Under the pieces are notes generated by a model. It was not told the origin of the DNA and searched no databases. It saw only the letters and a program-made list of their open reading frames with translations. From positions 1-52,496 of IMG/VR virus record IMGVR_UViG_3300020131_000006: a stretch of 52,496 bases of DNA; one strand, 5' to 3'. Made by a program: the position numbers and the translations under genes. Below are positions 1,437 through 52,496 of this stretch, one piece after another. This DNA comes from a virus. Lineage: Duplodnaviria > Caudoviricetes. Position 1 is the stretch's first letter. Every line of letters starts with the position of its first letter.

Positions 1437-1445
1437 GAGAAACAA

Positions 1446-4644: not shown

Positions 4645-4660
4645 GTTACAAGCTTGTAAT
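4645..4660. repeat. 16-bp palindromic motif, copy 1
   Basis: GTTACAAGCTTGTAAT directly after a stop codon. Confidence 0.85.
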
Positions 4661-4688
4661 CCATAATAATAAGAAAAGAGAATAATAA

Positions 4689-5054
4689 ATGAAATCACTT
4701 CTAATTGCTATTTTGGCAACTCTCACATTCTCAGCGTTCGCTGCTGATAATGACATTAAACTGGCAGTACCTAACGACAACAATGGTCACATTGTCCTGA
4801 CTCTAGAACCATGTGATGTTAAGTTCCAAGGCCCTGTTCCAGACACTCTCTACCGTGCATACGCAACTCAGGATGAGAATACCCCACGTCAAGTAATCTA
4901 TGAAGGTTGCTGGTCTGCTGGTATCCCACCCGCAAATGAAGAAGCTCAAGGTGCTATTCCTATTGTGAATATCTACACTGATGATGGTCGAGTGTACTCC
5001 CAACCCCTGAAGGATTTTAAGAAGTACAAGCCAGCTAATCAAGTAGACATTTAA
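4689..5054 (+). CDS. secreted/periplasmic hypothetical protein
   Basis: Sec-type signal peptide MKSLLIAILATLTFSAFA; two Cys. Confidence 0.7.
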   Translation: MKSLLIAILATLTFSAFAADNDIKLAVPNDNNGHIVLTLEPCDVKFQGPVPDTLYRAYATQDENTPRQVIYEGCWSAGIPPANEEAQGAIPIVNIYTDDGRVYSQPLKDFKKYKPANQVDI

Positions 5055-5057
5055 TAG

Positions 5058-5885: not shown

Positions 5886-6049
5886 ACCACCTTACCACAC
5901 ACTCCATCACTGGAGCCTATCGCAACGGAGCAAACTGGATTGAGGCTGTATGGGACGAGTCCGGTAGCTTCATGTTAGACGGCTCTGACCACCCTCTAGA
6001 CATTATCTTTGATAACTCCAAGATTAAAAATGCTCTTGGCAGGGCCTAA
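5828..6049 (+). CDS. hypothetical protein
   Basis: ORF track 5795-6049; probable ATG at 5828 after AAGGA; TAATG coupling downstream. Confidence 0.55.
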   Translation: MEFQENIQFKTRNNTDVRVDHLTTHSITGAYRNGANWIEAVWDESGSFMLDGSDHPLDIIFDNSKIKNALGRA

Positions 6050-6435
6050 TGTCTTGGACTGAAGGTCGACGCAAGGCATTTATAACATCTACCATTCGTA
6101 GCGGATTCAGAAGGTATCCAGAGAAGTTTGAAGTACTAAAGGAAGCAGCAGTCGGTAAAAAAATAAATAGCAAGTCCGGCAGAATGGCTCTCCATTATAA
6201 ATGTGCCTCATGCTCTAAGAGCTTCCCAACTAAAGAAGTACAAGTAGACCATATCAATCCAGTGGTTGACCCCATTGTAGGATTTAAAGATTGGGATACA
6301 TTCATTTCTAGGTTGTTCTGTTCTAAAGAGAACCTTCAAGTATTGTGTTTAGAATGCCATAAGAAGAAAACGAAGTCTGAAAAAGAGCAACGCGATAAGT
6401 CCTTAAAGAGCTTATCTAAAAAGGATAAAGAATGA
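6049..6435 (+). CDS. HNH endonuclease
   Basis: CASC...VDHINP...NLQVLCLECH. Confidence 0.85.
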   Translation: MSWTEGRRKAFITSTIRSGFRRYPEKFEVLKEAAVGKKINSKSGRMALHYKCASCSKSFPTKEVQVDHINPVVDPIVGFKDWDTFISRLFCSKENLQVLCLECHKKKTKSEKEQRDKSLKSLSKKDKE

Positions 6436-6662
6436 TTATAGTTCGTAATGTGCGTCAGTTAGAGGATGGAACCTACCAACTCACTTGGAATTTAGCACCT
6501 GACCAAATTGAGTTTCTATTAACTTTTGCTATCAATCATCTGTTAGCTGAAGGTTTAGTGAGTATCGAAGACCAAGCACCGGAGAGTCCTGAAGAAGCTA
6601 AGAAGCAACGAGAGCTTGACTTTCTCAATGATTTAGATGAAGAGGATTTACACCAAGCATGA
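6432..6662 (+). CDS. hypothetical protein
   Basis: ATGA-coupled 76-aa ORF. Confidence 0.65.
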   Translation: MIIVRNVRQLEDGTYQLTWNLAPDQIEFLLTFAINHLLAEGLVSIEDQAPESPEEAKKQRELDFLNDLDEEDLHQA

Positions 6663-6886
6663 GTAAGAATGACGTAACTGGCGATGAAATTAAATCAAAA
6701 GTTCCTTCTAAAGAGTTCCTAGATAACTATGACCGCATCTTCCGTAATCGAATAGATACTATCGGACAGAACGGTAACGAAGGACTCCACTACGATGCTC
6801 TATGTAATATCTGCGGGAAGGAACTAGAAAAGGTCACAGAATGTGCATGGACTTCATGCCCAAAGTGGCTAAGGGAAACTAAATGA
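6659..6886 (+). CDS. hypothetical protein with Cys cluster
   Basis: ATGA-coupled; NDVTGDEIKSK..NYDRIF, CNIC...C....C. Confidence 0.65.
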   Translation: MSKNDVTGDEIKSKVPSKEFLDNYDRIFRNRIDTIGQNGNEGLHYDALCNICGKELEKVTECAWTSCPKWLRETK

Positions 6887-7626
6887 AAATACTTCTGCTG
6901 GACATTGAAACAGCACCAAGCCTTGCATACATTTGGGGAATCTGGCAAGAGAACATCCCACTTGAGAGGTTGTTAGAATCTGGATATATCTTGTGTTGGG
7001 CTGCTAAATGGTTAGGTGAGGATGAAATCTTTTTCGATTCCGTCCAAACAAAGAGTCAGAAGGGTATGCTGAGAACCATCTATAAACTGCTCGATGAAGC
7101 TGATGCAGTTATGCACTACAATGGGAAGAAGTTTGACATTCCTACTCTTAATAGAGAATTTGTAGAGGTTGGTTGGACTCCACCTTCTCCCTATAAACAG
7201 ATAGACTTGTTGGAAACAGTTAGAGGTAACTTTAAACTACCGTCATACAAGTTAGAGTATGTGGCTAAATTCTTCGGGATTGGTGAAAAGTTTAAGCACA
7301 GTGGTTTCTCTGTGTGGGATGGTTGCATTAGGGGTGATAAAGCATCTTGGGAAGAAATGTCAAAGTATAACAAGATTGACACTACACTTCTAGAAGCTCT
7401 TTACTTTAAACTCCAACCTTGGATTAAACGTCATCCCAACTATTCTCTGTACTCAGATGATAGGATGGTATGTCCTAACTGCGGTGGTCATCACTTGGTT
7501 AAACGTGGTACACATAAGACACTACATAGTATCTTCCAAAGATACAAATGTAAGGGTTGTGGTAAATGGTGTCACGATAACAAGCGACTCAACGCTCAAG
7601 AGTTTAAGACTGTGGGTATAGAATGA
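6883..7626 (+). CDS. DnaQ/RNase H-like 3'-5' exonuclease with C-terminal Zn ribbon
   Basis: LDIET, HYNGKKFD, YNKID; CPNC...CKGC. Confidence 0.8.
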   Translation: MKILLLDIETAPSLAYIWGIWQENIPLERLLESGYILCWAAKWLGEDEIFFDSVQTKSQKGMLRTIYKLLDEADAVMHYNGKKFDIPTLNREFVEVGWTPPSPYKQIDLLETVRGNFKLPSYKLEYVAKFFGIGEKFKHSGFSVWDGCIRGDKASWEEMSKYNKIDTTLLEALYFKLQPWIKRHPNYSLYSDDRMVCPNCGGHHLVKRGTHKTLHSIFQRYKCKGCGKWCHDNKRLNAQEFKTVGIE

Positions 7627-7904
7627 CACAAGTAGAAAAACAACTGGCTATTACCAAGCTGGTAAAGAGAATGGTACAACTCACACAGGAACTGGAGTTA
7701 GCCTCTATGGATATGAAGGCATATGCTGTGCCTCTATCCAAGGGGCAGTTTCCTTCCTCTTGGGCAAAAGAAGTAAATAGAGCCTTCGAATCCTATGCTA
7801 CTGAAGCACGTCGGATTGCAGAAGCCTATGCTGAATTGTTCAAAGAGGATATAGAAGCTCCAGAAGAACCTAAACAAGAGATTAAGAAAAGGAAAAGGAA
7901 GTGA
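7623..7904 (+). CDS. hypothetical protein
   Basis: ATGA-coupled helical 93-aa ORF. Confidence 0.6.
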   Translation: MTQVEKQLAITKLVKRMVQLTQELELASMDMKAYAVPLSKGQFPSSWAKEVNRAFESYATEARRIAEAYAELFKEDIEAPEEPKQEIKKRKRK

Positions 7905-7905
7905 T

Positions 7906-8289
7906 ATGGATAATAGGAATATTGGGAGTAGTGATTCTGCTGTTACTGAGCAAGCCACGGAAGAAATCAATCCTGCAAAGAAAACCCCCTTACAAATCCG
8001 GCAAGCGACGCTAGACCAAGCTAAGGAATATACTTCTAAAGACCGCAACAGTGCATATGGTGAACCAGAAGATAACTTTCGTAACATTGCTACTTTATGG
8101 GATGCTTACCTATTTGCTAAATATCCGGGGTCTAAGCGGTTTCTCTTTGCTCCAGAAGATGTAGCAATTATGAACATTCTTCTGAAGGTGGCCCGACTTT
8201 CTACTAACCCTACCCATAAGGATAGCTGGATTGACACGGCTGGTTATGCCGCCTGTGGTGCTGGCATTGCCTTAAAAGGACTAGATTAA
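7906..8289 (+). CDS. DUF6378-like phage protein
   Basis: DRNSAYGEPEDNF..IATLW, LKVARL, DSWIDTAGYAACG. Confidence 0.7.
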   Translation: MDNRNIGSSDSAVTEQATEEINPAKKTPLQIRQATLDQAKEYTSKDRNSAYGEPEDNFRNIATLWDAYLFAKYPGSKRFLFAPEDVAIMNILLKVARLSTNPTHKDSWIDTAGYAACGAGIALKGLD

Positions 8290-8835
8290 ATGAACAATGA
8301 GCCTTGGATTCAGACGTACACAGGAAAAAAGTTTTATTTCTTAAACCCAACTCCTGACATGATTGATGTAGAAGACATTGCCCACGCTCTCTCTATGCAG
8401 GTACGGTTCGGTGGACACATTAACAAGTTCTACTCTGTGGCAGAACATTCTGTTTATGTGAGTGAGCTAGTTGGTAAATCTGATAAGATGGGAGCATTGT
8501 TTCATGACGCAAGTGAGGCGTATATCGCTGACATTGTGAGTCCTCTGAAAGAACATCTTCGGAATTATAGAGAGATTGAGGATAAGTTGATGTGGGCTAT
8601 TTCTAAGAAGTTTGGGTTTGAGTATCCTTTCCATCCAGACATTCACGATGCAGACCACGCTCAACTGAAGACTGAAGCTAAGGCTCTATTGAATCACTTT
8701 CCTACATGGTTAGCTGATTACCCAACAACCCGTGCTGGTGGAGTTCAACCTTATGGGTTGGCTCCTGAGAAAGCTAAAGCATTATTCTTAGGAACTTATA
8801 TGTTCCTTACTACTGGAGATATGAAATATGCGTGA
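8290..8835 (+). CDS. HD-domain phosphohydrolase (YfbR/YfdR-like 5'-deoxynucleotidase)
   Basis: EDIAHALS..RFGGH..YSVAEHS, LFHDASEAY. Confidence 0.85.
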   Translation: MNNEPWIQTYTGKKFYFLNPTPDMIDVEDIAHALSMQVRFGGHINKFYSVAEHSVYVSELVGKSDKMGALFHDASEAYIADIVSPLKEHLRNYREIEDKLMWAISKKFGFEYPFHPDIHDADHAQLKTEAKALLNHFPTWLADYPTTRAGGVQPYGLAPEKAKALFLGTYMFLTTGDMKYA

Positions 8836-9013
8836 AATGAAAATTCGTAAAACAAAAAATGAACGATATATTGTTTCTATTTTTGAAGAAAATGAATGGG
8901 AGAGTGAAGAGTATGCTTTCACAAGTATTTGGGAAGCTACTTTATTTATTCAGAATATATACGACCCTCCAGTACCACGAGCACAGGAACAGACAGATGA
9001 TAACCCTTTCTAA
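8828..9013 (+). CDS. hypothetical protein
   Basis: 61-aa ORF with GGAG RBS, overlapping both neighbours. Confidence 0.55.
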   Translation: MREMKIRKTKNERYIVSIFEENEWESEEYAFTSIWEATLFIQNIYDPPVPRAQEQTDDNPF

Positions 9014-9494
9014 TATAGTATTCCCTGCATGGGTTAAGTATGCAGCTATCGCCGGTTTGGTGGTAGCTGTCTGGGGACATGGCTATGTCAAGGGTCTTGA
9101 CCGATACGTTCACAAAGCGGCTATTGCTGACACTAAGATAATTGTGAAGCAAGGAAAAGTCACTGAGAAGGTAGTCTATAAGTACATCAAAGAATCTAAG
9201 AAGATTGAAGAACAAGGAAAGGCTCTCCAGAAAGAAGGACAAAGCTATGAAATTAAATTCCCTAATGACAATTATGTTTTTAACAATTACTTTACATGGT
9301 TGTACGACGGTAGTATCTCGGACTCCGTTCCCCCACTATCCAGTGGAAATGCAGCCGACCCCTCCGGCGTGGGAGTGTCTGAAGCCATCCCTGTGTTCCT
9401 AAACAATAATACAGCAGGACGTATGTGGGAACAACGAGCCAAAGCTTGTGAGGCTTGGGCAGAAGAACAAGAAAAGTTACAAAATGGAAACTAG
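8997..9494 (+). CDS. Rz-like inner-membrane spanin
   Basis: Probable ATG 8997; N-terminal TM helix then charged coiled-coil region; contains an embedded lipoprotein ORF. Confidence 0.65.
   Translation: MITLSNIVFPAWVKYAAIAGLVVAVWGHGYVKGLDRYVHKAAIADTKIIVKQGKVTEKVVYKYIKESKKIEEQGKALQKEGQSYEIKFPNDNYVFNNYFTWLYDGSISDSVPPLSSGNAADPSGVGVSEAIPVFLNNNTAGRMWEQRAKACEAWAEEQEKLQNGN
9247..9402 (+). CDS. Rz1-like outer-membrane lipoprotein spanin (embedded)
   Basis: MKLNSLMTIMFLTITLHG-C lipobox, Pro-rich mature part, GAAGGA RBS, different frame inside the Rz-like gene. Confidence 0.7.
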   Translation: MKLNSLMTIMFLTITLHGCTTVVSRTPFPHYPVEMQPTPPAWECLKPSLCS

Positions 9495-9497
9495 CAA

Positions 9498-9686
9498 ATG
9501 ACAATCACACTTGAGGAATTGAAAGAATTTATTTCTCATAACGTTGATGAAGTAGATGTACTGGAGCATCTGAATTTAACCTCAGAGGATTTGGTAAAAG
9601 CTTTTCATGATGTTATTGAGGATAAGTTCGAAAAATTGATTACCGACTTGGAACTAGAACAGGAACCTGATGACAACGCAGATTAA
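9498..9686 (+). CDS. hypothetical protein
   Basis: Acidic 62-aa ORF (TLEELKE..DEVDVLE.L..TSEDLV..F.D). Confidence 0.65.
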   Translation: MTITLEELKEFISHNVDEVDVLEHLNLTSEDLVKAFHDVIEDKFEKLITDLELEQEPDDNAD

Positions 9687-11568
9687 TGACTATCAACGAT
9701 ATATTGCCGCCTCTCGTTATGCAAGGTGGCGAGAGGATGACAACCGACGAGAGACTTGGGAAGAAACGGTAGACCGCCTAATCAACTTCTGGAAAGGGCG
9801 GTTTCCAAACCTAGATGTATATGACGAGCTGAGGGATGCTGTAGTCAATATGGAAGTGATGCCTTCCATGCGAAGTTTGATGAGTGCTGGCCCTGCTCTA
9901 GAACGTGATGAAATTGCAGGATATAACTGTTCATTCGTTGCTGTGGATAACCCACGAGCATTCGATGAAATCATGTATATCCTAATGTGTGGAACGGGTG
10001 TAGGCTTCTCTGTAGAACGGCAAGAGATTGCACAACTACCTGTTGTAGCAGAAGAGTTCCACGATAGCGACACAGTGATTCGTGTTCGGGATAGTCGTCT
10101 TGGGTGGGCTTCTGCCTTACGTGAACTTATCTCAATGCTCTACTCAGGAAGGATACCAAAGTATGACGTTTCTGCTATACGCCCTCACGGTAGCCGGTTG
10201 CGTACTTTTGGCGGCAGGGCTTCAGGTCCGGAACCCTTGGTGGATTTGTTTAACTTTGCCATTACTGTGTTTCGTCGCGCAGCAGGGCGTAAGCTTAATT
10301 CTGTAGAAGTCCATGACATTGTTTGCAAGATTGCTGATATTGTTGTTGTTGGTGGTGTTCGCCGTAGTGCGCTCATTTCACTATCTAATCTAACAGACGA
10401 ACGGATGCGTAATGCTAAGAACGGACAATGGTGGGAAGATAACGGACAACGTGCTTTAGCTAACAACTCTGTAGCTTACACTGAGAAACCTGACATTGGT
10501 ATCTTCATGCGTGAATGGCATTCTCTGTACGAAAGCAAGAGTGGAGAACGTGGCATCTTTAATCGAGTAGCTGCTGTGAAGCAAGCTAAGAAGTTTGGAC
10601 GTAGAGATTATGAAGGATATGATTATGGAACTAATCCTTGTGGCGAGATTATATTACGCTCGATGGGGTTATGTAATTTGTCTGAAGTTGTTGTACGTAG
10701 TGACGATACTTTTGATTCACTTCGGCGCAAAGTTAGGCTTGCTACCATCCTTGGAACACTCCAAAGTACGCTCACTAATTTCCGCTACCTTCGCTCAGGA
10801 TGGAAAAAGAATGCCGAAGAAGAACGCCTGTTAGGTGTAAGTCTTACTGGTATTATGGATAACAAATTTTTAAGTCATTCTGAAGAGTTCAAAGATGGTG
10901 CTCTAAGTTTGGCAGGAGCATTGGAAATATTAAGAGATGAAGCAATTGCTGTCAACAAGGAATGGGCTGGTAGACTTGGGGTGTCTCCTTCTGTGGCTAT
11001 TACTACTGTCAAACCAAGCGGTACTGTCTCGCAGTTGGTGGATAGCTCTAGTGGGATTCATCCTAGGTATTCGCCTTATTATATACGAACGGTACGTGCC
11101 GATAACAAAGACCCATTGGCTCAATTTCTTAAAGACCAAGGTGTTCCGAATGAACCGGACGTTACCAAACCAGAACGAGTAACTGTTTTTAGTTTCCCAA
11201 TGAAAGCTCCTGAAGGTGCTGTACTTCGGAACGACATGACAGCTATTCAGCAGTTAGAGCATTATCTGATTTATCAGAAGCACTGGTGTGAACACAACCC
11301 TTCAATTACTGTATATGTGAGAGAACATGAATGGCTGGAAGTTGGCGCTTGGGTGTATAAACATTTTGATGAGTTGGGTGGTGTTTCTTTTCTACCGCAT
11401 TCCGACCATTCTTATAAGCAAGCTCCTTATCAGGAAATAGATGAGGCTACGTATAAGAAGTTATTAGCAGAAATGCCAGCAATTAAATGGGAAGAGTTTA
11501 TAGAGGTAGAGGATACGCTGGAGAATACAAAAGAACTGGCGTGTGTTGCTGGTGTGTGTGAAATCTAA
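9670..11568 (+). CDS. nrdJ: class II (B12-dependent) ribonucleotide reductase
   Basis: SRYARW, MPSMR, YNCSF, GGVRRSA, GTNPCGEI, TVKPSGT, C-terminal ACVAGVCEI; no beta subunit nearby. Confidence 0.9.
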   Translation: MTTQINDYQRYIAASRYARWREDDNRRETWEETVDRLINFWKGRFPNLDVYDELRDAVVNMEVMPSMRSLMSAGPALERDEIAGYNCSFVAVDNPRAFDEIMYILMCGTGVGFSVERQEIAQLPVVAEEFHDSDTVIRVRDSRLGWASALRELISMLYSGRIPKYDVSAIRPHGSRLRTFGGRASGPEPLVDLFNFAITVFRRAAGRKLNSVEVHDIVCKIADIVVVGGVRRSALISLSNLTDERMRNAKNGQWWEDNGQRALANNSVAYTEKPDIGIFMREWHSLYESKSGERGIFNRVAAVKQAKKFGRRDYEGYDYGTNPCGEIILRSMGLCNLSEVVVRSDDTFDSLRRKVRLATILGTLQSTLTNFRYLRSGWKKNAEEERLLGVSLTGIMDNKFLSHSEEFKDGALSLAGALEILRDEAIAVNKEWAGRLGVSPSVAITTVKPSGTVSQLVDSSSGIHPRYSPYYIRTVRADNKDPLAQFLKDQGVPNEPDVTKPERVTVFSFPMKAPEGAVLRNDMTAIQQLEHYLIYQKHWCEHNPSITVYVREHEWLEVGAWVYKHFDELGGVSFLPHSDHSYKQAPYQEIDEATYKKLLAEMPAIKWEEFIEVEDTLENTKELACVAGVCEI

Positions 11569-37057: not shown

Positions 37058-37143
37058 TGGTGGAAGCTGATGGAGTCGAACCACCTAGGAACTAGCCTGC
37101 TTGTGGGTTACAGCCACACCCCTTACCGTTCGGGCAAGCTTCC
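37058..37143 (-). tRNA. tRNA-Tyr(GTA)
   Basis: GGAAGCT/AGCTTCC acceptor, loop CTGTAAC, long variable arm, GTTCGAC, encoded CCA. Confidence 0.85.
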
Positions 37144-37148
37144 TTAAT

Positions 37149-37222
37149 TGGCGATGTGTAAGGGAATTGAACCCTTGCGACCTCTTAGACAGAGAGGGAT
37201 GCTACCTCTACATCAACACATC
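37149..37222 (-). tRNA. tRNA-Asp(GTC)
   Basis: GATGTGT/ACACATC acceptor, CCTCT-CTGTCTA-AGAGG, G73, CCA. Confidence 0.85.
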
Positions 37223-37226
37223 AGAA

Positions 37227-37303
37227 TGGTCCCCATCGGTAGATTCGAACTACCACTGTACGGTTTCTAAGACCGCTATCTCTGCCAATTGGATTACATG
37301 GGG
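37227..37303 (-). tRNA. tRNA-Leu(TAG), short variable loop
   Basis: GCGGT-CTTAGAA-ACCGT, GGTAG-TTCGAAT-CTACC, A73, CCA. Confidence 0.8.
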
Positions 37304-37305
37304 AA

Positions 37306-37382
37306 TGGTCTAGAAGGTAGGACTTGAACCTACGACCCCGAGCTTCCAAAGCTCTCACTCTACCAAACTGAGCTACTCCTAG
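37306..37382 (-). tRNA. tRNA-Pro(TGG)
   Basis: CTAGGAG/CTTCTAG acceptor, TAGCTCAG..TGGTAGAG D arm, loop TTTGGAA, CCA. Confidence 0.9.
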
Positions 37383-44029: not shown

Positions 44030-45469
44030 ATGTGTGGCCTACTCGCATTCCACACAGCGGATAAGATAGGGTTTCAATCAGCGGATAGGGATAGCTTTCG
44101 ACAGATGCTGATTCTTACCTCATTACGTGGGAACCATTCAACAGGTGTGGCTGGTATCTCAAAGAATGTAGATAAGAATGATGTAAGTATTGTGAAAACT
44201 ACAGGCAGTCCCTATGCTTTGTTTGCATATACCAAGACAGATGAGTTCCTGACTCGCATGTTTAATGAGTTCGGTACGGTCATCGGGCATTGCCGCTATG
44301 CCACGCGCGGTGAGATTACAGCAGTAAACGCGCATCCTTTTGAAGAGGAACATATCACACTGGCACATAACGGAGTGATTAATAACTATCACCAACTGCG
44401 GGATTACAAGCGACATTCTGACATTACTGTGGACTCTCACTTAATTGCTCGTATGTTTGCTGAGGAACATCCACTTGACATTCTGCCAAAGGTAGAAGGT
44501 GCTTATGTCTTTATGTGGATTAATTCTGAAGAGGGTAGCTTTAACATTGCTCGTAACTTAGAACGTCCATTGTTCGTATCTCAGAAGGAGCATCAAGCTA
44601 CACTTGCCTTTGCATCGGAAGCACAAACCCTGTCATGGAACTCTTCCCGTAATAATATGAAATGTTCTGAGCCGACAGAGATTAAACCTTTCCATATCTA
44701 TACATACCCACGTGGTTCCATTGAGCCAGTGATTACGGAGTACAAGCCAGAACCAAAAAAAGTTATTATCTACCCGAATCAAGGTGGGCATGAAAGACAA
44801 CACCATAAAAATAATGATAACTTCTCTAAGGTAACACCCATAGATAAAAAGGTTCAGAAGAAGGGAAGTCCTCACGAAGCAGACGAGACTGACATTCTTA
44901 CCTTGAACACGGCATTGGATGTGACTCTGGAAGTAAATCAAGTTGTCAATATTTGGGTAGATGATTATGAGGACATGGATGGTTACACCGTCATCCGTTG
45001 TTATAGTGATGAATACCCGAATGTGGAGTTCTATATCAATACAACTCCAGAAAAAGCAATAGAAATTCTAGATGCTGATTCTCTCCGCGGTAATGTGAAT
45101 GGTATCCACCTAGTACCATCTGAGAAAACAGATAAGGGACTTCGTTGGAGAGCATATGTATCTAACTTTGTGTTTGTCTATGAGCCTAGTGAGCAAAAGA
45201 CAGAGTTTGGGCCAGTAGAGGAACCTAAGAAAACCAAAGTAACTTACAAGTACTCTCGTCGTAAGATGGGAGATATGCTTAAGATAGTTGAGTATCCTTC
45301 TGGAGAACTTATTAAAGTATCCAGACGTACATTCTTGACTTGGTGTGAGAAAGGTTGCTCTTGGTGTCAATCAGAGATAACCCAAGCTGAAGCTGATAAT
45401 TATCAGAAGCTCTTTCTTATGGATGATGAGGTTATTTGTCGTAGTTGTTCTGATACTGTTCGTAATTAA
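44030..45469 (+). CDS. class II (Ntn) glutamine amidotransferase with long C-terminal extension
   Basis: MCGL N-terminal Cys, RG.HSTG, GHCRYATRG, NAHPF, HNGVI, VDS, ERPL, FASE; C-terminal CSWC..CRSC. Confidence 0.85.
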   Translation: MCGLLAFHTADKIGFQSADRDSFRQMLILTSLRGNHSTGVAGISKNVDKNDVSIVKTTGSPYALFAYTKTDEFLTRMFNEFGTVIGHCRYATRGEITAVNAHPFEEEHITLAHNGVINNYHQLRDYKRHSDITVDSHLIARMFAEEHPLDILPKVEGAYVFMWINSEEGSFNIARNLERPLFVSQKEHQATLAFASEAQTLSWNSSRNNMKCSEPTEIKPFHIYTYPRGSIEPVITEYKPEPKKVIIYPNQGGHERQHHKNNDNFSKVTPIDKKVQKKGSPHEADETDILTLNTALDVTLEVNQVVNIWVDDYEDMDGYTVIRCYSDEYPNVEFYINTTPEKAIEILDADSLRGNVNGIHLVPSEKTDKGLRWRAYVSNFVFVYEPSEQKTEFGPVEEPKKTKVTYKYSRRKMGDMLKIVEYPSGELIKVSRRTFLTWCEKGCSWCQSEITQAEADNYQKLFLMDDEVICRSCSDTVRN

Positions 45470-45480
45470 TGGAGGACTAA

Positions 45481-45714
45481 ATGCAAAGAGGGGGTAATTC
45501 AGTATGTGATGATTGTATTAATGATATGGGAACACACTGTCGCCTACATCATGCACATCATCCAAAAATATTGGGATGCTATGACCATAAGGCAGCTCTT
45601 CCAGCTCCTGTAATCCAGCATCCACCTATTAACCAACAAAGCAAGAAACAGATTGAGTTTATTGTTACTGACCCAGAGACTAAGAAGGTAATTAAATATG
45701 CCAAACTTCCATGA
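45481..45714 (+). CDS. small Cys/His-rich protein
   Basis: GGAGG RBS; CDDC...C..HH.H...C. Confidence 0.6.
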   Translation: MQRGGNSVCDDCINDMGTHCRLHHAHHPKILGCYDHKAALPAPVIQHPPINQQSKKQIEFIVTDPETKKVIKYAKLP

Positions 45715-46537
45715 GACACCTCCAACTATTCCAGTCTTTCAAAACCGGGATAGAGTTATTTATCAAGGTCTATCCTCTACTGAGGAAATAGTGTACTCCA
45801 CTACTCATATTTGTTTTGGGTTGTTTGGCTCACACCATTTCAGAAAGGAGTTCTTAGAAGTTCCAGACCTTACTTATTTTCAAACATGGTTTGGTGACTC
45901 TTTATCTCTTGTTCTCAAAGAAGAGGGATGGGCTGAGAAATTCATAGATGCCTTGAAAACAACAGGACTTCTTGAAAATGTAGACCTAAAAGTACTTGAC
46001 AAAAAAGATATTACTAAGAAGGAATCTGAAGCTTTTTCGTATGTTGCTTCTGCTGATAAAGCATTACGCATGGTTCGATTGAGGTTCGACCTTAATAAAG
46101 TATCTTCTCCGGAAATGTTTCTGATTATCTGTACCATTAGAACTCTTGCTATAAATCCGGGGGTAATTTATGACAGCCTTCTGTTGTGGGAGAAACATCC
46201 AGATGTATCTTATTGGAATTGTCTTATAGCAGCCCATGGTATAAATATGGGGACATATCGCTCACACCATCCGCTCCACGGCCTATGCTCAAGTAAAGTT
46301 GGGTATGTTTTAAGCACAGTTGAGGAAATTCTAGAAGTACTAAAGCGTGAGCGAAAAGTACTAGCAATCAAAGATATGCAATATACCCGTGTTATATGGG
46401 ATACTGTAATTCATGCGGATTTTAGGTATGGCCCTATACCGGCTTACTCTGAAGAACTATTTAATTCTTATATGGGGGAAAAACAATTCAAAGAATATGT
46501 AAAAGCTCATCCAAAAACAAACAGACCAGCATGGTAA
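45698..46537 (+). CDS. hypothetical protein in the ligase cluster
   Basis: 279-aa ORF; no motif recognised. Confidence 0.7.
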   Translation: MPNFHETPPTIPVFQNRDRVIYQGLSSTEEIVYSTTHICFGLFGSHHFRKEFLEVPDLTYFQTWFGDSLSLVLKEEGWAEKFIDALKTTGLLENVDLKVLDKKDITKKESEAFSYVASADKALRMVRLRFDLNKVSSPEMFLIICTIRTLAINPGVIYDSLLLWEKHPDVSYWNCLIAAHGINMGTYRSHHPLHGLCSSKVGYVLSTVEEILEVLKRERKVLAIKDMQYTRVIWDTVIHADFRYGPIPAYSEELFNSYMGEKQFKEYVKAHPKTNRPAW

Positions 46538-46552
46538 TTTAAGGAGAAACAA

Positions 46553-47206
46553 ATGGCACGTTTAGTAGCAATCGGTAATTTCTTTGGGGCACATGCTCCG
46601 TTTCAAGACTTATTCAAAGAGGTAGTTGTCATGTCGTTGGGTAAGTATGCAACCTTTGAATTGAAAGATGATGATGTTGTATTGTTTGGCGGTGGTGCTG
46701 ACATTAGCCCATCAATCTATAACCAAGTTCCAAGCAGACATACAGGCGCACGTGCCGAGCTGTCTGATAGGGATGAAGTAGAAGTGTATATGTTTAATGC
46801 AGCTAAGAAGAAGAACCTTCCGATGCTTGGTATCTGTCGTGGTGCACAATTAGTATGTGCTTTATCCGGTGGTTCCTTGATTCAGCATGTGTCTAATCAT
46901 GCAGGGCCGAATCATAAGATTGCTACCAATGAGGGTACGGTCATTGATGTGTGTTCTGTGCATCATCAAATGATGAACCCATTCTCAACTAAGCATGAGC
47001 TTATTGCGTGGGCGCATCGACGGCTATCCCCACATTACATTGTTGCAAATGAACTTGAAGTTGAAATGAAGGTAGAACCTGAAGTAGTTTATTTTCCTGA
47101 GACGAAAGCTTTGGGTATCCAATACCATCCTGAGTTTATGCACCCTGACGACCAAGGCGTTATCTACGCTCGTGAGTTGGTTGCTAAATATCTTCTGAAG
47201 GAGTAA
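46553..47206 (+). CDS. class I glutamine amidotransferase / peptidase C26 (gamma-glutamyl hydrolase-like)
   Basis: GGGADISP, RD..E, LGICRGAQ, SVHHQ, GIQYHPE catalytic triad. Confidence 0.9.
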   Translation: MARLVAIGNFFGAHAPFQDLFKEVVVMSLGKYATFELKDDDVVLFGGGADISPSIYNQVPSRHTGARAELSDRDEVEVYMFNAAKKKNLPMLGICRGAQLVCALSGGSLIQHVSNHAGPNHKIATNEGTVIDVCSVHHQMMNPFSTKHELIAWAHRRLSPHYIVANELEVEMKVEPEVVYFPETKALGIQYHPEFMHPDDQGVIYARELVAKYLLKE

Positions 47207-47210
47207 GACC

Positions 47211-47657
47211 ATGTTTTTTGATGATATGACTACAGCACGCTATAAGAAACTTATAGCTAATCTGTCTAAAGAAATTAAAAAAGAGGTTAAGGTATATTTT
47301 CCTCTAATGGATGGTGATGGTTATGATGAGAATGATTCGGCACTAGTTCAGATTTCTGTTGAGGGACAAGCACGAAAATTTAGTGCTTATTTTGACGGGT
47401 ATCCAAGTAATTGCGGCATAGCTATTCTTAATAATATGGCACTGACTTCTGATAAAGCTCAGAACAAAGCTTTTCTAAAATTCCTTCTTGACTTGGCTGA
47501 GTCTGCTAATTATACGCAAGTTCATTATACAGCAACAGACCATCAAATTGGGATTCGTGATTTACTCGACGAGTGTGGCTTTGTAGAGATAGAGGCTCTC
47601 CGTTTTGAAAATAAACGAACTGGCAGTCTGCTGTTCTATTACTCAATGGAGATATAG
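47211..47657 (+). CDS. hypothetical protein, possible GNAT fold (paralog 1)
   Basis: YPSNCGI, YTQVHYT, L.ECGFVE...F.N.RTG. Confidence 0.6.
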   Translation: MFFDDMTTARYKKLIANLSKEIKKEVKVYFPLMDGDGYDENDSALVQISVEGQARKFSAYFDGYPSNCGIAILNNMALTSDKAQNKAFLKFLLDLAESANYTQVHYTATDHQIGIRDLLDECGFVEIEALRFENKRTGSLLFYYSMEI

Positions 47658-47673
47658 GTTACAACCTTGTAAC
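47658..47673. repeat. 16-bp palindromic motif, copy 11 (inverted centre)
   Basis: GTTACAACCTTGTAAC directly after a stop. Confidence 0.85.
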
Positions 47674-47694
47674 AATCTAATATAGGAGAGTGTT

Positions 47695-48144
47695 ATGTGG
47701 CTGAGGATATTTAAAGAGCATATCAAGAAGGATATCGAAAAAGAATTACCTGATAAGTTCTCGGTGGAGTATGGTGTTTTATCAGCGGATTACAAAAGTA
47801 TACATCGTCTTCGGTTTACGACGCAAGAAGACACATATACTAGGACACTGTTTTCAGTTAGGTTAACACAGTTTCCAGAAAATTGCGGTATTGTTTTGGT
47901 AGCTGGTTTAATCTCTGACACAGATGAACTCAGAAGCATTGGTCTAAGGGCCATTAAGTCACAGTGTTATGATGCTGGATATACTCAGTTATTATACACT
48001 GTGAATGAGAAGCAAGAGGCATTAAAAGAGGCTCTTTTAGAGTTTGGTTTTGTTGAGCATCCATCTCTAAGTTTTCTGAATCATCGCTCAGGTAAACAAA
48101 TTACGTATCTTTCTTATGACTTAAGGAGCAAGAACAATGTATAA
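47695..48144 (+). CDS. hypothetical protein, possible GNAT fold (paralog 2)
   Basis: FPENCGI, YTQLLYT, L.EFGFVE...F.N.RSG. Confidence 0.6.
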   Translation: MWLRIFKEHIKKDIEKELPDKFSVEYGVLSADYKSIHRLRFTTQEDTYTRTLFSVRLTQFPENCGIVLVAGLISDTDELRSIGLRAIKSQCYDAGYTQLLYTVNEKQEALKEALLEFGFVEHPSLSFLNHRSGKQITYLSYDLRSKNNV

Positions 48145-48910
48145 TAATCTGCAACGCGGGGCTGACCCTGAACTCTTCTTACGGGATAAGCATAACTTTC
48201 CCGTAACAGCGATTGGTCTGATTGGGGGTAGTAAGAATGTGCCAAGGCAAATCGGTAATGGGTTTGCTTTGCAAGAGGATAATGTAGCTGTGGAGTTCAA
48301 CATTCCACCAGCTTCCTCTAAGGAACAGTTTGTTTCGTCCATTCACTTTGTACTTGACTTCTTACGTCAAGAACTAGCACCCAAGGAATTACACCTTGAC
48401 ATTTCTCCAACTATGGAATTTACAGAGGAGCAACTTGACCATCCACAGGCTCGTCAGTTTGGATGTGAGCCGGACTTCAATGCGTGGACTCTGGACATTA
48501 ACCCACGACCCAAAGCACCAGCAAACTTCCGTAGTAGTGGTGGTCACTTACATCTAGGTTGGGATGATCCAACTGAGGAAGAACAGGTTCGATTGATTAA
48601 GGCCCATGACTTATTCTGTGGTGTGCCTTCATTGATATACGACCCTGACGTTAAGCGTCGTGAAGTATATGGCAAGGCAGGGGCATGTCGTTTCAAAGAT
48701 TATGGTGTGGAGTATCGCACTCTATCGAACTTCTGGCTGAAGAGTGAAGAGTTGACAGCTTGGCTTTTCGAACAGTCGGAGAAAGCAGTTAAGTTTGTGA
48801 AAGACCAGAATAAATTATCTGAAGAAGATTGTGCTAAGATAGTTCATTGTATCAATGCATCTGATCATCAGCTTCTTGCAGAGTTGAATGAGAAGTTTGC
48901 AATTCTATAG
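48137..48910 (+). CDS. phiEco32-like COOH-NH2 ligase (type 2)
   Basis: GADPELF, IGGSK, LQEDNVAVEFN, FGCEPDFNAW, GGHLHLG, RR..YGKAG..R...YGVEYRTLSNFW. Confidence 0.9.
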   Translation: MYNNLQRGADPELFLRDKHNFPVTAIGLIGGSKNVPRQIGNGFALQEDNVAVEFNIPPASSKEQFVSSIHFVLDFLRQELAPKELHLDISPTMEFTEEQLDHPQARQFGCEPDFNAWTLDINPRPKAPANFRSSGGHLHLGWDDPTEEEQVRLIKAHDLFCGVPSLIYDPDVKRREVYGKAGACRFKDYGVEYRTLSNFWLKSEELTAWLFEQSEKAVKFVKDQNKLSEEDCAKIVHCINASDHQLLAELNEKFAIL

Positions 48911-48919
48911 GATTCTAAT

Positions 48920-49639
48920 ATGGATAATTTCAATGCAAAGGAATTACAGCGGCGGTATGGGGGAACGTATGTAAGTATCTTCCGCAAAGATACTAAGGAG
49001 ATTGTCGGAGCCTATGTAGATAGGATACATGCGGATGAGAACTTAACAGCAATACCCTCCGCTGTTCTCTATGTACTTCCCAAAGAGAAATCTGAGGAAT
49101 ATGTAATTAAAGGGTCTAAGGGGGACATGGGAAAAGCTGTTCTCCCACTTAGTCACTTTACCATTCTACCAATGCCACCGGCACGTGTCTTTGATGTTAA
49201 TGGGGTTACTATAGTATTCCGACGTGATCCTGCTAGACAGTGGCAGCGAGGACTTACTGGACAGAACGGAACGTTCCATAATCCACTGTACACATTCCTA
49301 ACTTCGGTAAAGAACTTCAAAGTTAAACGTGAACAGTTCAGATTATCTTTACAAGAGATTAATAATCTTTTGATTGGGGAGAGTGCTGGTAGTTTTAACA
49401 AAGCTCTGAATGATATTGAGGACTACAAGCTGTTGTCTAGAACTATCAACGATAAGTACTTTATCTCGTTGTATCCAGACAAGCAGCATGAGTATCTGCT
49501 ATTCCGAATGGAAGAGCCTCTGGCTTATTACAGTAGGGTTACAGATACCTTTACTGTTGTGAATCCTTTATTCGAGCAAGAGGTAAGTGATTTTATTCGT
49601 CGCAATAACTTGCGTTCATTTGTGAAGAGGGCCAATTAA
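48920..49639 (+). CDS. hypothetical protein in the ligase cluster
   Basis: 239 aa; R.P.RQW.RGL motif. Confidence 0.7.
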   Translation: MDNFNAKELQRRYGGTYVSIFRKDTKEIVGAYVDRIHADENLTAIPSAVLYVLPKEKSEEYVIKGSKGDMGKAVLPLSHFTILPMPPARVFDVNGVTIVFRRDPARQWQRGLTGQNGTFHNPLYTFLTSVKNFKVKREQFRLSLQEINNLLIGESAGSFNKALNDIEDYKLLSRTINDKYFISLYPDKQHEYLLFRMEEPLAYYSRVTDTFTVVNPLFEQEVSDFIRRNNLRSFVKRAN

Positions 49640-51133
49640 ATGAGAGTCAGAGATATGTTTCATGCGCCGGACTTCCTAGATGAAACAGAAATCTTATTGA
49701 AGATAGCACAAGATAAGAAGTATGTTTCTCCTGTTAAGATGGCAGTTGATGATGTTTTTGTGGGCATTGAGGTAGAGGTTGAACGAGTGTTCCGAACCAA
49801 TGGTATTCTCCCTCTGCCTTCGTCCGGTAACTTCCTATGGAAGAATGTAGAGGATGGAAGCCTACGTAACAATGGTCGAGAGTTTGTTTCTATTCCCATT
49901 CGTGGGGATACAATTCCATTCGCTCTTGAGGTATTGAATCGTACTCTCAATAAAGAGAAACTCTGCATTGGTCATGAGTTCTCTGAGAGAACCTCTGTGC
50001 ATGTTCATGTTGATGTTCGGGCAATGACTACTGAGCAGCTACAGAGCTTTATCCTGACGTACATTCTGTTAGAACCCCTGTTCTATAACTACACAGGAGA
50101 CACACGGTATAACAATATCTTCTGTGTACCTTTGAACTATTCAAATCTCAACAAGGTACTTAAGAGACTCTTTGATGATTTGCAAAAGGGAATTGCTCAT
50201 AAAGCTATGGGCGGTATTAATACATGGCCTAAGTACACAGGGTTTAACCTTAAACCAGTTACAACGTATGGTACTGTTGAGTTTCGGCATATGGGTGGAA
50301 CTTGTGATGTTGCTGAGTTGTCCAACTGGATCAATTTAATCTTACGGTTGCATCGGTACGCTGAGGGACAATCGTTTGAGAAGTTGAAGAGCCGCATCCT
50401 TAATATGAATACAACGTCAGAGTATATGCAAATTGTCTCTGAGATATTCGGCAATGACTTGTACTTGATTCGTGAGGATAAGTTGGTGCAGCATATGGAA
50501 GATATGGTTGTCTTTATTAAGGATATTTTCTCAAACGTATCTGTTAGCACACTCTTTTCCGCGGAACTAAAATCAAATTTCCCTGAAGAGTTATTAGATT
50601 GTAAGTTTGTCAAACATGCCACAGATGCAGGATGGTGGGTTAAGGTTAGGCTGCCATTTACTCGTGATGAATATCATACTTTCTTGGCAACAAGTGGACA
50701 TAATACGGAATATATTTCTTGGTTGTTTGAGTTCCACAAACGACACGCTATCAAGGTTCGGGATGACGACGAATTGCTTCTTCTATCTCACGAGCATATG
50801 AGATATTACTTGGACGAAGTACAGAAAAAGGAAAAGAAGGAAGTGGTGAAGAAGCGTGCCACACCACGGGAGCCTAGAGTGGAAGCTGTTGGTGGATGGG
50901 GGGGTGTTAACCCCAATCGAGATGATGCTATAGCGGCAATGGCCGCCGCCGCCCGTCGTGGTCTTGACCCTGATGTTGCAGCAGCAGCTCTTCGTGTGGA
51001 TGCGGTACCACCACTAAGGCCATTCGGCGAACAGCCGCAAGCAGAACCAGCCCCACGTCGTAGAGGACAGGTAGCAGAAATAGTTCAAGATGAAAATGGA
51101 AATGCAAATCTTATTTGGAGGGACATAGAATGA
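49640..51133 (+). CDS. putative amidoligase (glutamine synthetase-like fold)
   Basis: GIEVEVE, DGSLR, EFVS, SVHVH, KY..FN, GTVEFRH. Confidence 0.85.
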   Translation: MRVRDMFHAPDFLDETEILLKIAQDKKYVSPVKMAVDDVFVGIEVEVERVFRTNGILPLPSSGNFLWKNVEDGSLRNNGREFVSIPIRGDTIPFALEVLNRTLNKEKLCIGHEFSERTSVHVHVDVRAMTTEQLQSFILTYILLEPLFYNYTGDTRYNNIFCVPLNYSNLNKVLKRLFDDLQKGIAHKAMGGINTWPKYTGFNLKPVTTYGTVEFRHMGGTCDVAELSNWINLILRLHRYAEGQSFEKLKSRILNMNTTSEYMQIVSEIFGNDLYLIREDKLVQHMEDMVVFIKDIFSNVSVSTLFSAELKSNFPEELLDCKFVKHATDAGWWVKVRLPFTRDEYHTFLATSGHNTEYISWLFEFHKRHAIKVRDDDELLLLSHEHMRYYLDEVQKKEKKEVVKKRATPREPRVEAVGGWGGVNPNRDDAIAAMAAAARRGLDPDVAAAALRVDAVPPLRPFGEQPQAEPAPRRRGQVAEIVQDENGNANLIWRDIE

Positions 51134-51918
51134 ACTTAGTAATATATCCATACAACTTAGGTAGTGCTTCTGCTCGTGCTTTAAAAGAAGCACTTACGGA
51201 TAGGTTACAAGCACGGGTGTTGCGGGTACGGTCATCTGCTCGTTTGCGGCAGCGTCCTCGTATCGTGTTGAATCTTGGGAATGCTAGACCACCTGAGTTC
51301 TTCCATACTCGTATGATTAATCAACCAGCCGCTGTTAATGTGGCAGGTAACAAGCTTCTGTCTTTCCAAGCTTTGAGGGATGCCAACATTCCAATTCCTG
51401 AGTTCACTACTGATATTGCTCAGGCAAGCAATTGGTTACAGGAAGGTATTTCTGTACTTTCCAGAGAAGCACTTCGTGGGCATAGTGGGGAAGGTATTGT
51501 GATAAATAATCCCAACCCAACTAATGCTGTGGCATTGGCTCCACTGTATGTCAAGTACAAAAAGAAGAAACATGAGTTCCGTGTCCATGTGTTTAATGGT
51601 CAGGTGATTGACTTGCAGCAGAAGAAGAAGATACGTGACTTCGAGCATACTGATGAACAGAAGAAAGTTCGTAGTCATCATAATGGTTGGGTATTCTGTC
51701 GAGAGGACTTAAATTTAAATGAAGAAAATCTGGTTCGAATTAAAGCTATCGCTGTATCTGCTGTTAATGTTTTGGGTTTGGATTTTGGTGCTGTTGACAT
51801 TATTTTTAATGAAAGAGAGAACGCTTTCTACGTCTTGGAAGTTAACACCGCTCCGGGCTTGGAAGGGCAGACGTTAGAATCTTATGTTGAAGCTATTGCT
51901 AATTTTGTGGGGGTATAA
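51130..51918 (+). CDS. ATP-grasp peptide ligase (RimK-like)
   Basis: NK...F, GHSGEGI, EFRVHV, LDFGAVDII, VLEVNTAPG; ATGA coupling. Confidence 0.9.
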   Translation: MNLVIYPYNLGSASARALKEALTDRLQARVLRVRSSARLRQRPRIVLNLGNARPPEFFHTRMINQPAAVNVAGNKLLSFQALRDANIPIPEFTTDIAQASNWLQEGISVLSREALRGHSGEGIVINNPNPTNAVALAPLYVKYKKKKHEFRVHVFNGQVIDLQQKKKIRDFEHTDEQKKVRSHHNGWVFCREDLNLNEENLVRIKAIAVSAVNVLGLDFGAVDIIFNERENAFYVLEVNTAPGLEGQTLESYVEAIANFVGV

Positions 51919-51922
51919 TAAA

Positions 51923-52078
51923 ATGAGAATTAAATGTACGTGTCATCATGAGTATCAGGATAACCGTTATGGTAAGGGGGTTAGAGTAGCAACTCCTAAG
52001 AAACTTTCCCAAGGAAAACCAACAGAAGTTAAGTGCACTGTTTGTGGAACAGTTACTAAGAACTTCACAGAAAAATAA
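51923..52078 (+). CDS. small Zn-binding protein
   Basis: CTC.HEYQD..YG.G.RV...CTVCG. Confidence 0.65.
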   Translation: MRIKCTCHHEYQDNRYGKGVRVATPKKLSQGKPTEVKCTVCGTVTKNFTEK

Positions 52079-52125: not shown

Positions 52126-52329
52126 ATGCATTGCCGTGCTTGTGATTGTGAATTAACTGATGAAGAAGCTGTTCGTAAATATGACAATTGGAAAGAGATT
52201 GAAAATCCAGAAGAGCGATATATTGATTTGTGCAACAGATGTATTGGTAAGTCAGACCTAGCGGTTTATGATAGTGACATGCTAGATACAACAAGTATAC
52301 CTGAAGAGGATTATCATGGAGAAGAGTAA
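52126..52329 (+). CDS. small Zn-finger protein
   Basis: CRACD..L...E..RK...DLC..C; AAGGA RBS. Confidence 0.7.
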   Translation: MHCRACDCELTDEEAVRKYDNWKEIENPEERYIDLCNRCIGKSDLAVYDSDMLDTTSIPEEDYHGEE

Positions 52330-52496
52330 AGTAGTGCCAGTAGAGCCAACAGAGGAAATGATTGAGGCAGGAATACTCAACGCGCACGGACACAAAGCGG
52401 AGTGGGAGATACGCCTGTTTTACAAGCTGTTCTACGAGGGAGCGATAGCAGCCGCCCCACAGCAGCAGGGCGAGCCGGTGGCATGGTTGATTCCAC
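52316..52496 (+). CDS. hypothetical protein, truncated at window end
   Basis: GAGG RBS; VPVEPTEEM...AAAP..EPVAW motif; locally higher GC. Confidence 0.6.
   Translation, partial: MEKSKVVPVEPTEEMIEAGILNAHGHKAEWEIRLFYKLFYEGAIAAAPQQQGEPVAWLIP

Follow-up and report, generated by a model that had tools for sequence, protein, structure and literature searches.

What does a phage produce with three different ATP-dependent carboxylate-amine ligases encoded side by side with amidotransferase-type enzymes and several small accessory proteins? This question is raised by a block of ten genes at positions 44030-51918 of the IMG/VR virus record IMGVR_UViG_3300020131_000006, which was analyzed over its entire length of 52,496 bases (hereafter, the window). 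The original prediction interpreted this block as an expanded version of the amide- and peptide-ligase pathway found in phages such as phiEco32 and PaP3. Our results indicate that the block represents a variant of a phage module that is already known and widespread but still lacks an explanation, and that it is not uniquely expanded. More precisely, it very probably constitutes an early/middle operon of a lytic tailed phage carrying a phiEco32/PaP3-type module, in a form common in uncultured relatives that possesses a C26 enzyme and lacks gamma-glutamyl cyclotransferase (GGCT); judging from their sequences, its enzymes look functional. The module was reportedly first described by Iyer and colleagues in 2009, and the question of its product has been standing since that description.

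A known ligase module in a ten-gene block

The block comprises ten open reading frames (ORFs) on the + strand, which we named A to J. These ORFs are separated by spacers of 0-37 nt or overlap (B/C, F/G, and I/J), and no ORF above 141 aa was found on the minus strand of the block. At 40% G+C, open frames of 217-497 codons are much longer than chance would produce. Neither promoter-like sites (18 vs 27.5 ± 5.1 in shuffled sequences) nor terminator-like sites (6 vs 7.5 expected) were found in excess. The co-directional organization that had been described over ~8 kb is thus accurate, and five of the encoded enzymes were confirmed by Pfam and PHROGs.

Three of these enzymes are ligases. Protein G (48137-48910, + strand, 257 aa) is a COOH-NH2 ligase type 2 that matched COOH-NH2_lig (E = 2.1e-9) and phrog_3815 (2.6e-79), and its score of 37.4 bits against PF14395 is above the gathering cut-off of 25. 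Protein I (49640-51133, + strand, 497 aa) belongs to Amidoligase_2 (1.1e-8; phrog_7469, 3.5e-41), a family resembling glutamine synthetase and gamma-glutamylcysteine synthetase (GS/GCS-like), and also exceeded the gathering cut-off (35.7 bits against PF12224, cut-off 22). Its catalytic part covers approximately residues 36-300, and members of its family range from 212 to 600 aa. The C-terminal extension of roughly 200 residues contains an Ala/Pro/Arg-rich stretch (residues about 420-480, positions 50900-51080), which is odd at 40% G+C. Protein J (51115-51918, + strand, TTG start, 267 aa) is a RimK-like ATP-grasp ligase that matched Pfam RimK (9.2e-6; 25.8 bits, cut-off 21) and phrog_2599 (5e-81), which places an ATP-grasp ligase inside the co-directional block. 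In NCBIfam, J was matched by MptN (5e-15) and by rimK_fam (8e-15), both under their cut-offs; for the latter model (TIGR00768), the score was 54.9 bits against a cut-off of 143.4. J is a RimK-like enzyme and not a member of the curated RimK family. Among the sequences of solved structures, its best matches were D-Ala-D-Ala ligases (6e-4), and among NCBIfam models both RimK and MptN outscored Ddl.

The two remaining enzymes are related to glutamine amidotransferases (GATases). Protein A (44030-45469, + strand, 479 aa) is a class II (Ntn) enzyme that matched GATase_6 (3.7e-19; 69.5 bits, cut-off 27) and phrog_4736 over residues 1-477 (2.5e-56). Protein D (46553-47206, + strand, 217 aa) is a Peptidase C26/class I GATase, as supported by matches to Peptidase_C26 (1.3e-21; 77.8 bits, cut-off 20.5), GATase (4.5e-11) and phrog_7218 (3.9e-36). 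Proteins B, C, E, F, and H yielded no match in Pfam, PHROGs, or NCBIfam (for E and F, the Pfam search used a threshold of E ≤ 0.01). We then compared the enzymes to alignments of their relatives, and the strongly conserved columns were entirely retained in G (47/47), I (18/18), D (29/29), and A (24/24), as well as in the conserved protein H (6/6). The key motifs had been described as intact, and a single conserved column, in J (14/15), departs from this picture. Finally, a Kyte-Doolittle scan of the block proteins revealed no evident transmembrane segment, and values above 1.6 were limited to a borderline 1.61 in C and to the core sheet of J.

Distribution and gene order in related phages

Homologs of G were found in 318 phage records, the best of which was Alcaligenes phage vB_Af_QDWS535 (47%). 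At the DNA level, none of 50,697 phage records closely matched the window. We then compared 42 loci, composed of 40 IMG/VR loci fetched through G together with stretches of QDWS535 and of crAss cr108_1; PaP3 was added later. Several of these loci are near-duplicates (L024/25/26/30, L017/18/19, L037/38/40, L039/41, L032/33, and L012/13/14). Counts were obtained by combining tblastn with iterated local hidden Markov models (HMMs), and the GGACT family was named from the Pfam match of a representative. Across these 42 loci, which were chosen by their likeness to G, we detected G in 42, A and J in 40 each, D (C26) in 39, I in 38, H in 14, and GGACT in 13.

The usual gene order is D, a spacer ORF, G, H, I, A, J, small ORFs, and then genes for a primase-like protein, DnaB, and DNA polymerase. 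The core order G-H-I-A-J is maintained from PaP3 to the relatives of the window, and these five genes form the conserved core of the module. In the window, A has left its usual place between I and J and opens the block; this relocation, along with genes B and C, seems to set this phage apart. In the window and in at least 24 loci, the genes for the primase-like protein, DnaB, and DNA polymerase directly follow the cluster. One uncultured phage presented a reordered cluster located right after the DNA polymerase (L005, 7478-15888), in which G is followed by a 375-aa unknown protein, ATP-grasp, an E/F-like protein, GGACT, GATase-II, Amidoligase_2, a second short GATase-II-like protein, and a 389-aa unknown protein.

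These results support the assignment of the block to the phiEco32/PaP3-type module, since the models of G, I, A, and J are all above their cut-offs and synteny is shared. In contrast, they do not support the view that the pathway is expanded in this phage: C26 is found in 39 of the 42 loci, proteins similar to E and F in 13 to 15 of them, and GGCT is missing from 29. C26 is thus the rule among relatives, and the supposed expansion does not distinguish this phage from them. In GenBank, the C26 form represents a minority, with homologs of D in 64 phage records vs 318 with the ligase.

The class II amidotransferase and its zinc-ribbon tail

Protein A presents an N-terminal Cys2 nucleophile, a variable middle region, and a Zn ribbon (encoded at about 45356-45448) followed by a tail ending in DTVRN. 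The residues M1-C2-G3 are present in A and are conserved in at least 85% of 40 rows of the family. PHROGs and GenBank label this family as "L-glutamine-D-fructose-6-phosphate aminotransferase". We rejected this identity as a misnomer because the GlmS models cover the glutaminase part only and far below their cut-offs (58.7-65.4 bits against cut-offs of 381-418, spanning residues 31-201 only); the sugar isomerase domains were unmatched. The NCBIfam GlmS and PurF models together aligned to residues 31-204 only, far under their cut-offs.

Behind the glutaminase domain, the family is very variable and consists of a low-complexity linker, a beta-rich region, and a CxxC...CxxC Zn ribbon. The presence of a zinc-finger tail had been noted on A, and we found the CxxC...CxxC pattern to be invariant in all 14 relatives that have the ribbon (21 aligned); orf45 of PaP3 also has one. 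Among 21 close relatives, 16 end in His, Asn, or Gln, a residue that is mostly preceded by Leu, Val, Ile, or Ala, often with Ser or Thr ahead (e.g., SSTLH, SSTVQ, and PTIH; DTVRN in the window). A terminal H/N/Q, often behind a long low-complexity linker, was found in 17 of 40 non-redundant rows of A (C-termini taken from L004-L043 and from 45455-45466 of the window), whereas six other families from these loci gave 11 of 165, an enrichment (Fisher's test, p = 1.7e-7) that was tested post hoc on rows that are related to one another. The invariant ribbon and the frequent hydrophobic-H/N/Q ending of the family are newly described here.

This architecture is reminiscent of LysW, a Zn-ribbon carrier protein whose C-terminal tail is loaded by LysX. 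Indeed, the family of A combines a Zn ribbon with a C-terminal tail, and A is usually encoded directly before the RimK/LysX-like gene J, often overlapping it. However, the LysW model of Pfam matched none of 26 proteins at E ≤ 5 (14 tails of A and 10 proteins of the d67 type among them), which yielded only sub-threshold hits to generic zinc ribbons, and the terminal residue of A is H/N/Q rather than Glu. The predicted complex of J with the tail of A scored 0.00 in both runs (alignments A6 and A7; mark of 0.32), a result that speaks neither for nor against binding. As a lead only, a figure legend of a bioRxiv preprint lists LysW, glucosamine-6-phosphate synthetase, and carboxylate-amine ligase on maps of archaeal viruses (10.1101/2025.02.15.638363).

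Two small Zn-ribbon proteins without a Pfam family are encoded after the ATP-grasp gene. The first, d64 (51884-52078), has homologs in five loci, where they are found elsewhere in the early region. The second, d67 (52126-52329, + strand), carries a 28-residue acidic tail ending in HGEE, and in 10 loci its homologs directly follow the ATP-grasp gene; d67 may be associated with the module. The terminal residues of d67 and d64 are not conserved.

The C26 enzyme and gamma-glutamyl cyclotransferase

The catalytic triad of D (C95, H192, and E194) falls within columns that are conserved in at least 90% of the family. Its best match in NCBIfam was the gamma-glutamyl-CDP-amidate hydrolase (6.8e-11, below the cut-off). 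The absence of GGCT from this phage had been pointed out, and our six-frame searches of the record with PF06094 and PF13772 agree with it, since they returned no match at E ≤ 1 in a record that is cut by at least ~0.6 kb at its start. Because of this cut, the absence is not absolute. GGCT was not treated as an obligatory component of the module because only 13 of the 42 related loci have it, and the GGCT-less state is that of the majority (29/42). When both families are considered, C26 or GGACT is present in 40 of the 42 loci, an observation that is new here and that suggests the formation and cleavage of a gamma-glutamyl amide.

E and F belong to a family with a predicted GNAT fold

Genes E (47211-47657, + strand, 148 aa) and F (47695-48144, + strand, 149 aa) are paralogs (32% identity over 92 residues, BLASTP E = 4e-14) that had been described as resembling Gcn5-related N-acetyltransferases (GNATs). 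Single-sequence and word-based approaches were mostly unproductive. No match was found by scanning viral contigs with E, P0003, or P0048 as single proteins, by scanning metagenomes with P0048, with a closer E/F alignment (A8), or by tblastn of F and P0003 against the 50,697 phage records. Word-based searches recovered E itself only, and five proteins when a profile was used. An exhaustive HMMER search with the E/F profile, which F matched at 4.0e-76, yielded 100 cluster representatives at E ≤ 1e-3, six of them at E ≤ 1e-10. Nearly all of these relatives are 130-200 aa long. We built the family alignment (A2) from 52 of the top 60 rows, chosen by length so that fragments and very long proteins were left out. 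This alignment revealed an invariant Cys (C68 of E) within the motif F-P-x-N-C-G, near-invariant positions G69, N134, and R136, a G-Y-T-Q..Y-T block, and a G-F block.

Four lines of evidence agree on a GNAT fold, which makes this assignment a fair call of moderate strength. Pfam Acetyltransf_1 was matched by 5 of the 52 family members (best E = 2.5e-6) and not by E and F themselves. The family profile matched the acetyltransferase 8iym among solved structures (3e-4); the profile of E itself returned only chance-level rows in the same comparison. An AlphaFold2 model of E, built from a two-row alignment (pLDDT 65.5, pTM 0.67), matched numerous acetyltransferases in Foldseek, as well as M. tuberculosis ICL2 through its GNAT-like, acetyl-CoA-binding domain (E = 8.8e-4, TMq 0.56; the best E value). 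With VIA-align, a search independent of Foldseek, 38 of the 50 rows listed for this model were titled as acetyl- or acyltransferases, Nat subunits, FemA/FemX, or aminoacyl-tRNA-dependent peptide synthase; FemA was among them at Z = 7.2, and the best match (Z = 7.6, rmsd 2.9 Å, 90 aligned residues) remains modest with a Z below 8. The suggestion of GNAT-like paralogs is thus moderately supported.

The canonical pyrophosphate loop of acetyl-CoA-binding enzymes follows the motif Q/R-x-x-G-x-G/A. By eye, the corresponding loop after strand 4 is variable in A2: the conserved Gly is absent in E, F, and most members, and K-G-V-G is found in a few. Since the usual acetyl-CoA loop is not evident, the acyl donor of E and F could be a CoA thioester or an aminoacyl-tRNA.

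Proteins similar to E and F were identified in 13 of the 42 loci with the 52-row profile (E ≤ 1e-3) and in 15 with an iterated profile. Several of the corresponding genes occupy the slot between D and G. Indeed, three groups of D-G spacer ORFs aligned to the E/F family with hhalign probabilities of 89-95%; L007 gave 52%, and a fourth group (L006, L016, L027, L028, L031, and L034) could not be linked to it (≤3.9%). E and F therefore appear to represent an unannotated family, newly described here, that recurs in the module and is predicted to adopt a GNAT fold.

Conserved and unique unknown ORFs

Three ORFs of the block had been classified as unknown, a description that suits B and C but not H, which is a conserved member of the core. 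Protein H (48920-49639, + strand, 239 aa) carries the motif R-x-P-x-R-Q-W-x-R-G, and its family was found in 14 of the 42 loci, every time between G and I. In PaP3, orf47 occupies the same position and aligned to the H family with an hhalign probability of 86%. These comparisons make H a core member of the module, present in PaP3 as well, which is new here. The AlphaFold2 model of H (12 rows, pLDDT 72) is composed of a small N-terminal beta-barrel and a confident C-terminal alpha/beta part. The barrel weakly resembles Tudor, KOW, and SH3-like domains (best VIA match at Z = 6.0, rmsd 3.5, 67 aligned residues). Foldseek returned nothing at E ≤ 1e-3 for this model, the H profile produced only chance-level rows against the sequences of solved structures, and an atlas search gave a low-confidence model with scores below 0.9.

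Genes B (45481-45714, + strand, 77 aa, with an N-terminal Cys/His-rich stretch) and C (45698-46537, + strand, 279 aa) are ORFans. No homolog of either was detected by tblastn in the 42 loci, and C recovered only itself among 452 candidates in a search of 5.8 billion proteins. When compared with 11 locus families and with orf41, 47, 49, and 50 of PaP3, both gave hhalign probabilities of at most 0.6% (≤0.3% for C), and the atlas search of C produced a low-confidence model with scores below 0.9 and no usable hit. B and C thus appear to be unique to this phage.

Genome context of the block

The overall layout of the genome is that of a lytic tailed phage. Positions 198-11568 of the + strand are occupied by replication and nucleotide genes (DnaB-like helicase, split family A DNA polymerase, exonucleases, and class II ribonucleotide reductase), the minus strand carries the genes for packaging and structure at about 12.6-37 kb, and the early region covers the + strand from about 38 kb to the end, with the ten-gene block at its end. 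Four consecutive tRNA genes (Tyr-GTA, Asp-GTC, Leu-TAG, and Pro-TGG; 37058-37382, minus strand) lie where the structural region gives way to the early one. Separate ORFs (1729-2919 and 3147-3899) share the coding sequence of the family A DNA polymerase, whose exonuclease is a gene of its own (6883-7626), and an HNH endonuclease ORF is present at 6049-6435. We also considered a thiol peptide that would feed the phage ribonucleotide reductase. This candidate was unsupported, and no thioredoxin or glutaredoxin was found among the other + strand ORFs.

The record lacks end repeats and is estimated to be 100% complete by CheckV. Bases 2-148 encode the last 48 residues of a primase-like protein (profile positions 196-243 of 246), the same protein that is found downstream of the cluster in 24 loci, and a 53,374-base contig of the protein library also encodes the same proteins. 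Because the record enters the primase-like gene mid-gene at base 2 and because of this longer contig, the record called complete is in fact short by at least ~0.6 kb at its start. Truncation of the record was noted around positions 1-148 and 52316-52495.

Proposed function and alternatives

How might these proteins work together? With a probability of roughly 0.45, we propose that the block assembles in the cytoplasm a short, amide-linked peptide of the gamma-glutamyl type. We infer the chemical steps of this stepwise scheme, their order, and the acceptor from the known chemistry of GshA/GshB/GGCT, PuuA/PuuD, EgtA/EgtC, Ngg/AsnO, and MurT/GatD. The three ATP-dependent carboxylate-amine ligases (the GCS/GS-like G and I and the RimK-like J) would each add one unit, and the use of three different ligases suggests a defined heteropeptide rather than a homopolymer tail. 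A would hydrolyze glutamine at Cys2 and deliver ammonia to one of the ligases, converting a carboxylate into a carboxamide with a logic similar to that of MurT/GatD or of the pathway for N-acetylglutaminylglutamine amide (NAGGN). The E/F pair could transfer an acyl or aminoacyl group to an amine. D may remove a gamma-glutamyl group, used as a protecting or carrier group or subject to turnover, a role that GGCT might play in other phages, alone or beside C26. Finally, H and the Zn-ribbon region of A would represent non-catalytic parts for recognition or docking.

Several observations weigh against this scheme. The nearest characterized relatives of J include RimK and LysX, which act on protein C-termini, and H and the tail of A look like macromolecule-binding modules. 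The block encodes no exporter and no amino-acid-tailoring enzyme of the type found in metabolite clusters. Instead of a hydrolase, D might represent a second glutaminase, as its NCBIfam relatives are of both kinds, and the canonical acetyl-CoA loop motif is not evident in E and F.

Alternatively, the module could tag proteins or peptides, which we regard as possible, with the odds somewhat against it. The ligases would extend a carboxylate of a host or phage protein, as RimK does at the C-terminus of S6, A would amidate it, C26 or GGCT would trim it, and H and the Zn ribbon would recognize the target. The RimK-like nature of J, the SH3/Tudor-like barrel predicted for H, and the invariant Zn ribbon and enriched terminal hydrophobic-H/N/Q of the A family are consistent with such a role. 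So is the fast divergence of the accessory parts (H, E/F, and the C-terminal region of A) relative to the conserved catalytic cores, which suits an interaction with host targets. On the other hand, three ligases and an amidotransferase exceed the machinery of known protein-tailing systems, the characterized relatives of G, I, D, and GGCT work on small molecules, and no candidate target was identified. All five enzyme families have characterized relatives in small-molecule gamma-glutamyl pathways (PuuA/PuuD, GshA/GshB/GGCT, EgtA/EgtC, and Ngg/AsnO). By analogy with glutathione, NAGGN, and gamma-glutamyl amines, we lean slightly toward a free small product over a protein tag, with a small amine or amino acid slightly preferred to a protein C-terminus as the acceptor. 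In an unlikely variant, the class II GATase would carry the growing product itself: a LysW-like scaffold would be provided by its flexible tail and Zn ribbon, on which J and G/I build a peptide, the GNAT-fold proteins tailor it, and C26 or GGCT releases it. If true, this would represent a phage-borne, protein-tethered assembly line for non-ribosomal peptides, with the conserved tail of the amidotransferase as candidate acceptor.

Other explanations place the module in cell wall, nucleic acid, or nitrogen metabolism. According to PMC10580990, which attributes the idea to Iyer et al. 2009, the module was proposed to amidate peptidoglycan precursors in the cytoplasm or to add residues to them, thereby blocking superinfection or lysis from without. 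The D-Ala-D-Ala ligases found as best solved-structure matches of J and the Fem-type transferases among the fold matches of E are compatible with it. We nonetheless consider it quite improbable: J fits the RimK and MptN models better than Ddl, the module is spread over very different phage groups, including crAss-like phages, and PMC11706807 assigns viruses with an amidoligase and GATase pair to Poseidoniales archaea, which have no murein. The position of the cluster directly upstream of replication genes, together with the gamma-glutamyl-CDP-amidate substrate of the best NCBIfam relative of D, might instead suggest modification of nucleotides, DNA bases, or tRNA as part of a replication and nucleotide-metabolism block. 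This adjacency may merely mirror early/middle gene order, however, and the block encodes no glycosylase, kinase, transglycosylase, or nucleotide-binding tailoring enzyme, so that such a role is a long shot. Least credible of all are general auxiliary metabolic genes raising the supply of amino acids of the host through nitrogen or glutamine metabolism, as proposed for Phage-ZRK32 in PMC10945688 on the basis of growth stimulation rather than enzymology. Indeed, a fixed five-gene synteny, specialized ligases, a conserved adaptor, and a Zn-ribbon tail exceed the needs of central nitrogen metabolism.

The absence of a known product that had been stated is consistent with the literature: no demonstrated product of the module was found in the literature searched, which included passages of PMC3517423, PMC2938197, and PMC7824862. 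Papers from 2023-2025 still describe the function as unexplored or speculate about it (PMC10580990, PMC11706807, and PMC10945688). The question matters broadly because at least 318 sequenced phage records carry the module, including those of marine phages, crAss-like gut phages, and Pseudomonas phages relevant to therapy. Our analysis narrows it to a five-gene core, a gamma-glutamyl-cleaving enzyme that is nearly always present, a recurrent accessory family of predicted GNAT fold, and a conserved amidotransferase tail as a candidate acceptor.

Comparison with known systems

The window shares with the module of phiEco32, PaP3, and LUZ24 a COOH-NH2 ligase type 2, an H-like protein, Amidoligase_2, a class II GATase with a Zn ribbon, and a RimK-like ATP-grasp ligase, and in both cases the genes are co-directional and adjoin replication genes. 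The stretch of PaP3 encodes A, G, I, and J along with GGCT, and no homologs of C26 or E/F were found in it (tblastn, E ≤ 0.01); the window presents the opposite combination. It further differs from PaP3 by the class II GATase at the head of the block with two ORFans behind it.

The nearest cultured relative, QDWS535 (OK172329.1), encodes C26, a tandem pair of paralogs in the slot between C26 and the ligase, and then G, H, I, A, and J, with identities of 30-48% to the proteins of the window. Unlike the window, it possesses GGCT ~2 kb upstream, retains A between I and J, and has neither B nor C. In its annotation, a 192-aa ORF between gene 44 and the COOH-NH2 ligase (L002, 7400-7978) is an unannotated paralog of gene 44 (blastp, 5e-7), and the similarity of gene 45, annotated as a "peptidase" of 459 nt, to the C26 protein extends over 636 nt, which indicates that its start was probably called too late. 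Since the phage of the window is uncultured and without a known host, cultured relatives are better suited to experiments.

Beyond phages, J can be compared with RimK and LysX, as it matches both models but remains below the NCBIfam cut-offs. Lipid II amidation by MurT/GatD relies on a class I enzyme, GatD, and a Mur-type ligase, MurT. The resemblance lies in a stand-alone glutaminase that feeds ammonia to an ATP-dependent ligase amidating a carboxylate, although neither of the two families was matched in the block. Closer in composition are the pathways that handle gamma-glutamyl small molecules: the Puu pathway (PuuA and PuuD), glutathione (GshA, GshB, and GGCT), ergothioneine (EgtA and EgtC), and NAGGN (Ngg and AsnO). 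These use sets of superfamilies comparable to those of the window, namely a GS/GCS-like ligase, ATP-grasp, C26 or GGCT, a class II GATase, and a GNAT. No protein of the window reached an equivalog cut-off of these pathways, and to their common repertoire the phage module adds H and the Zn-ribbon tail.

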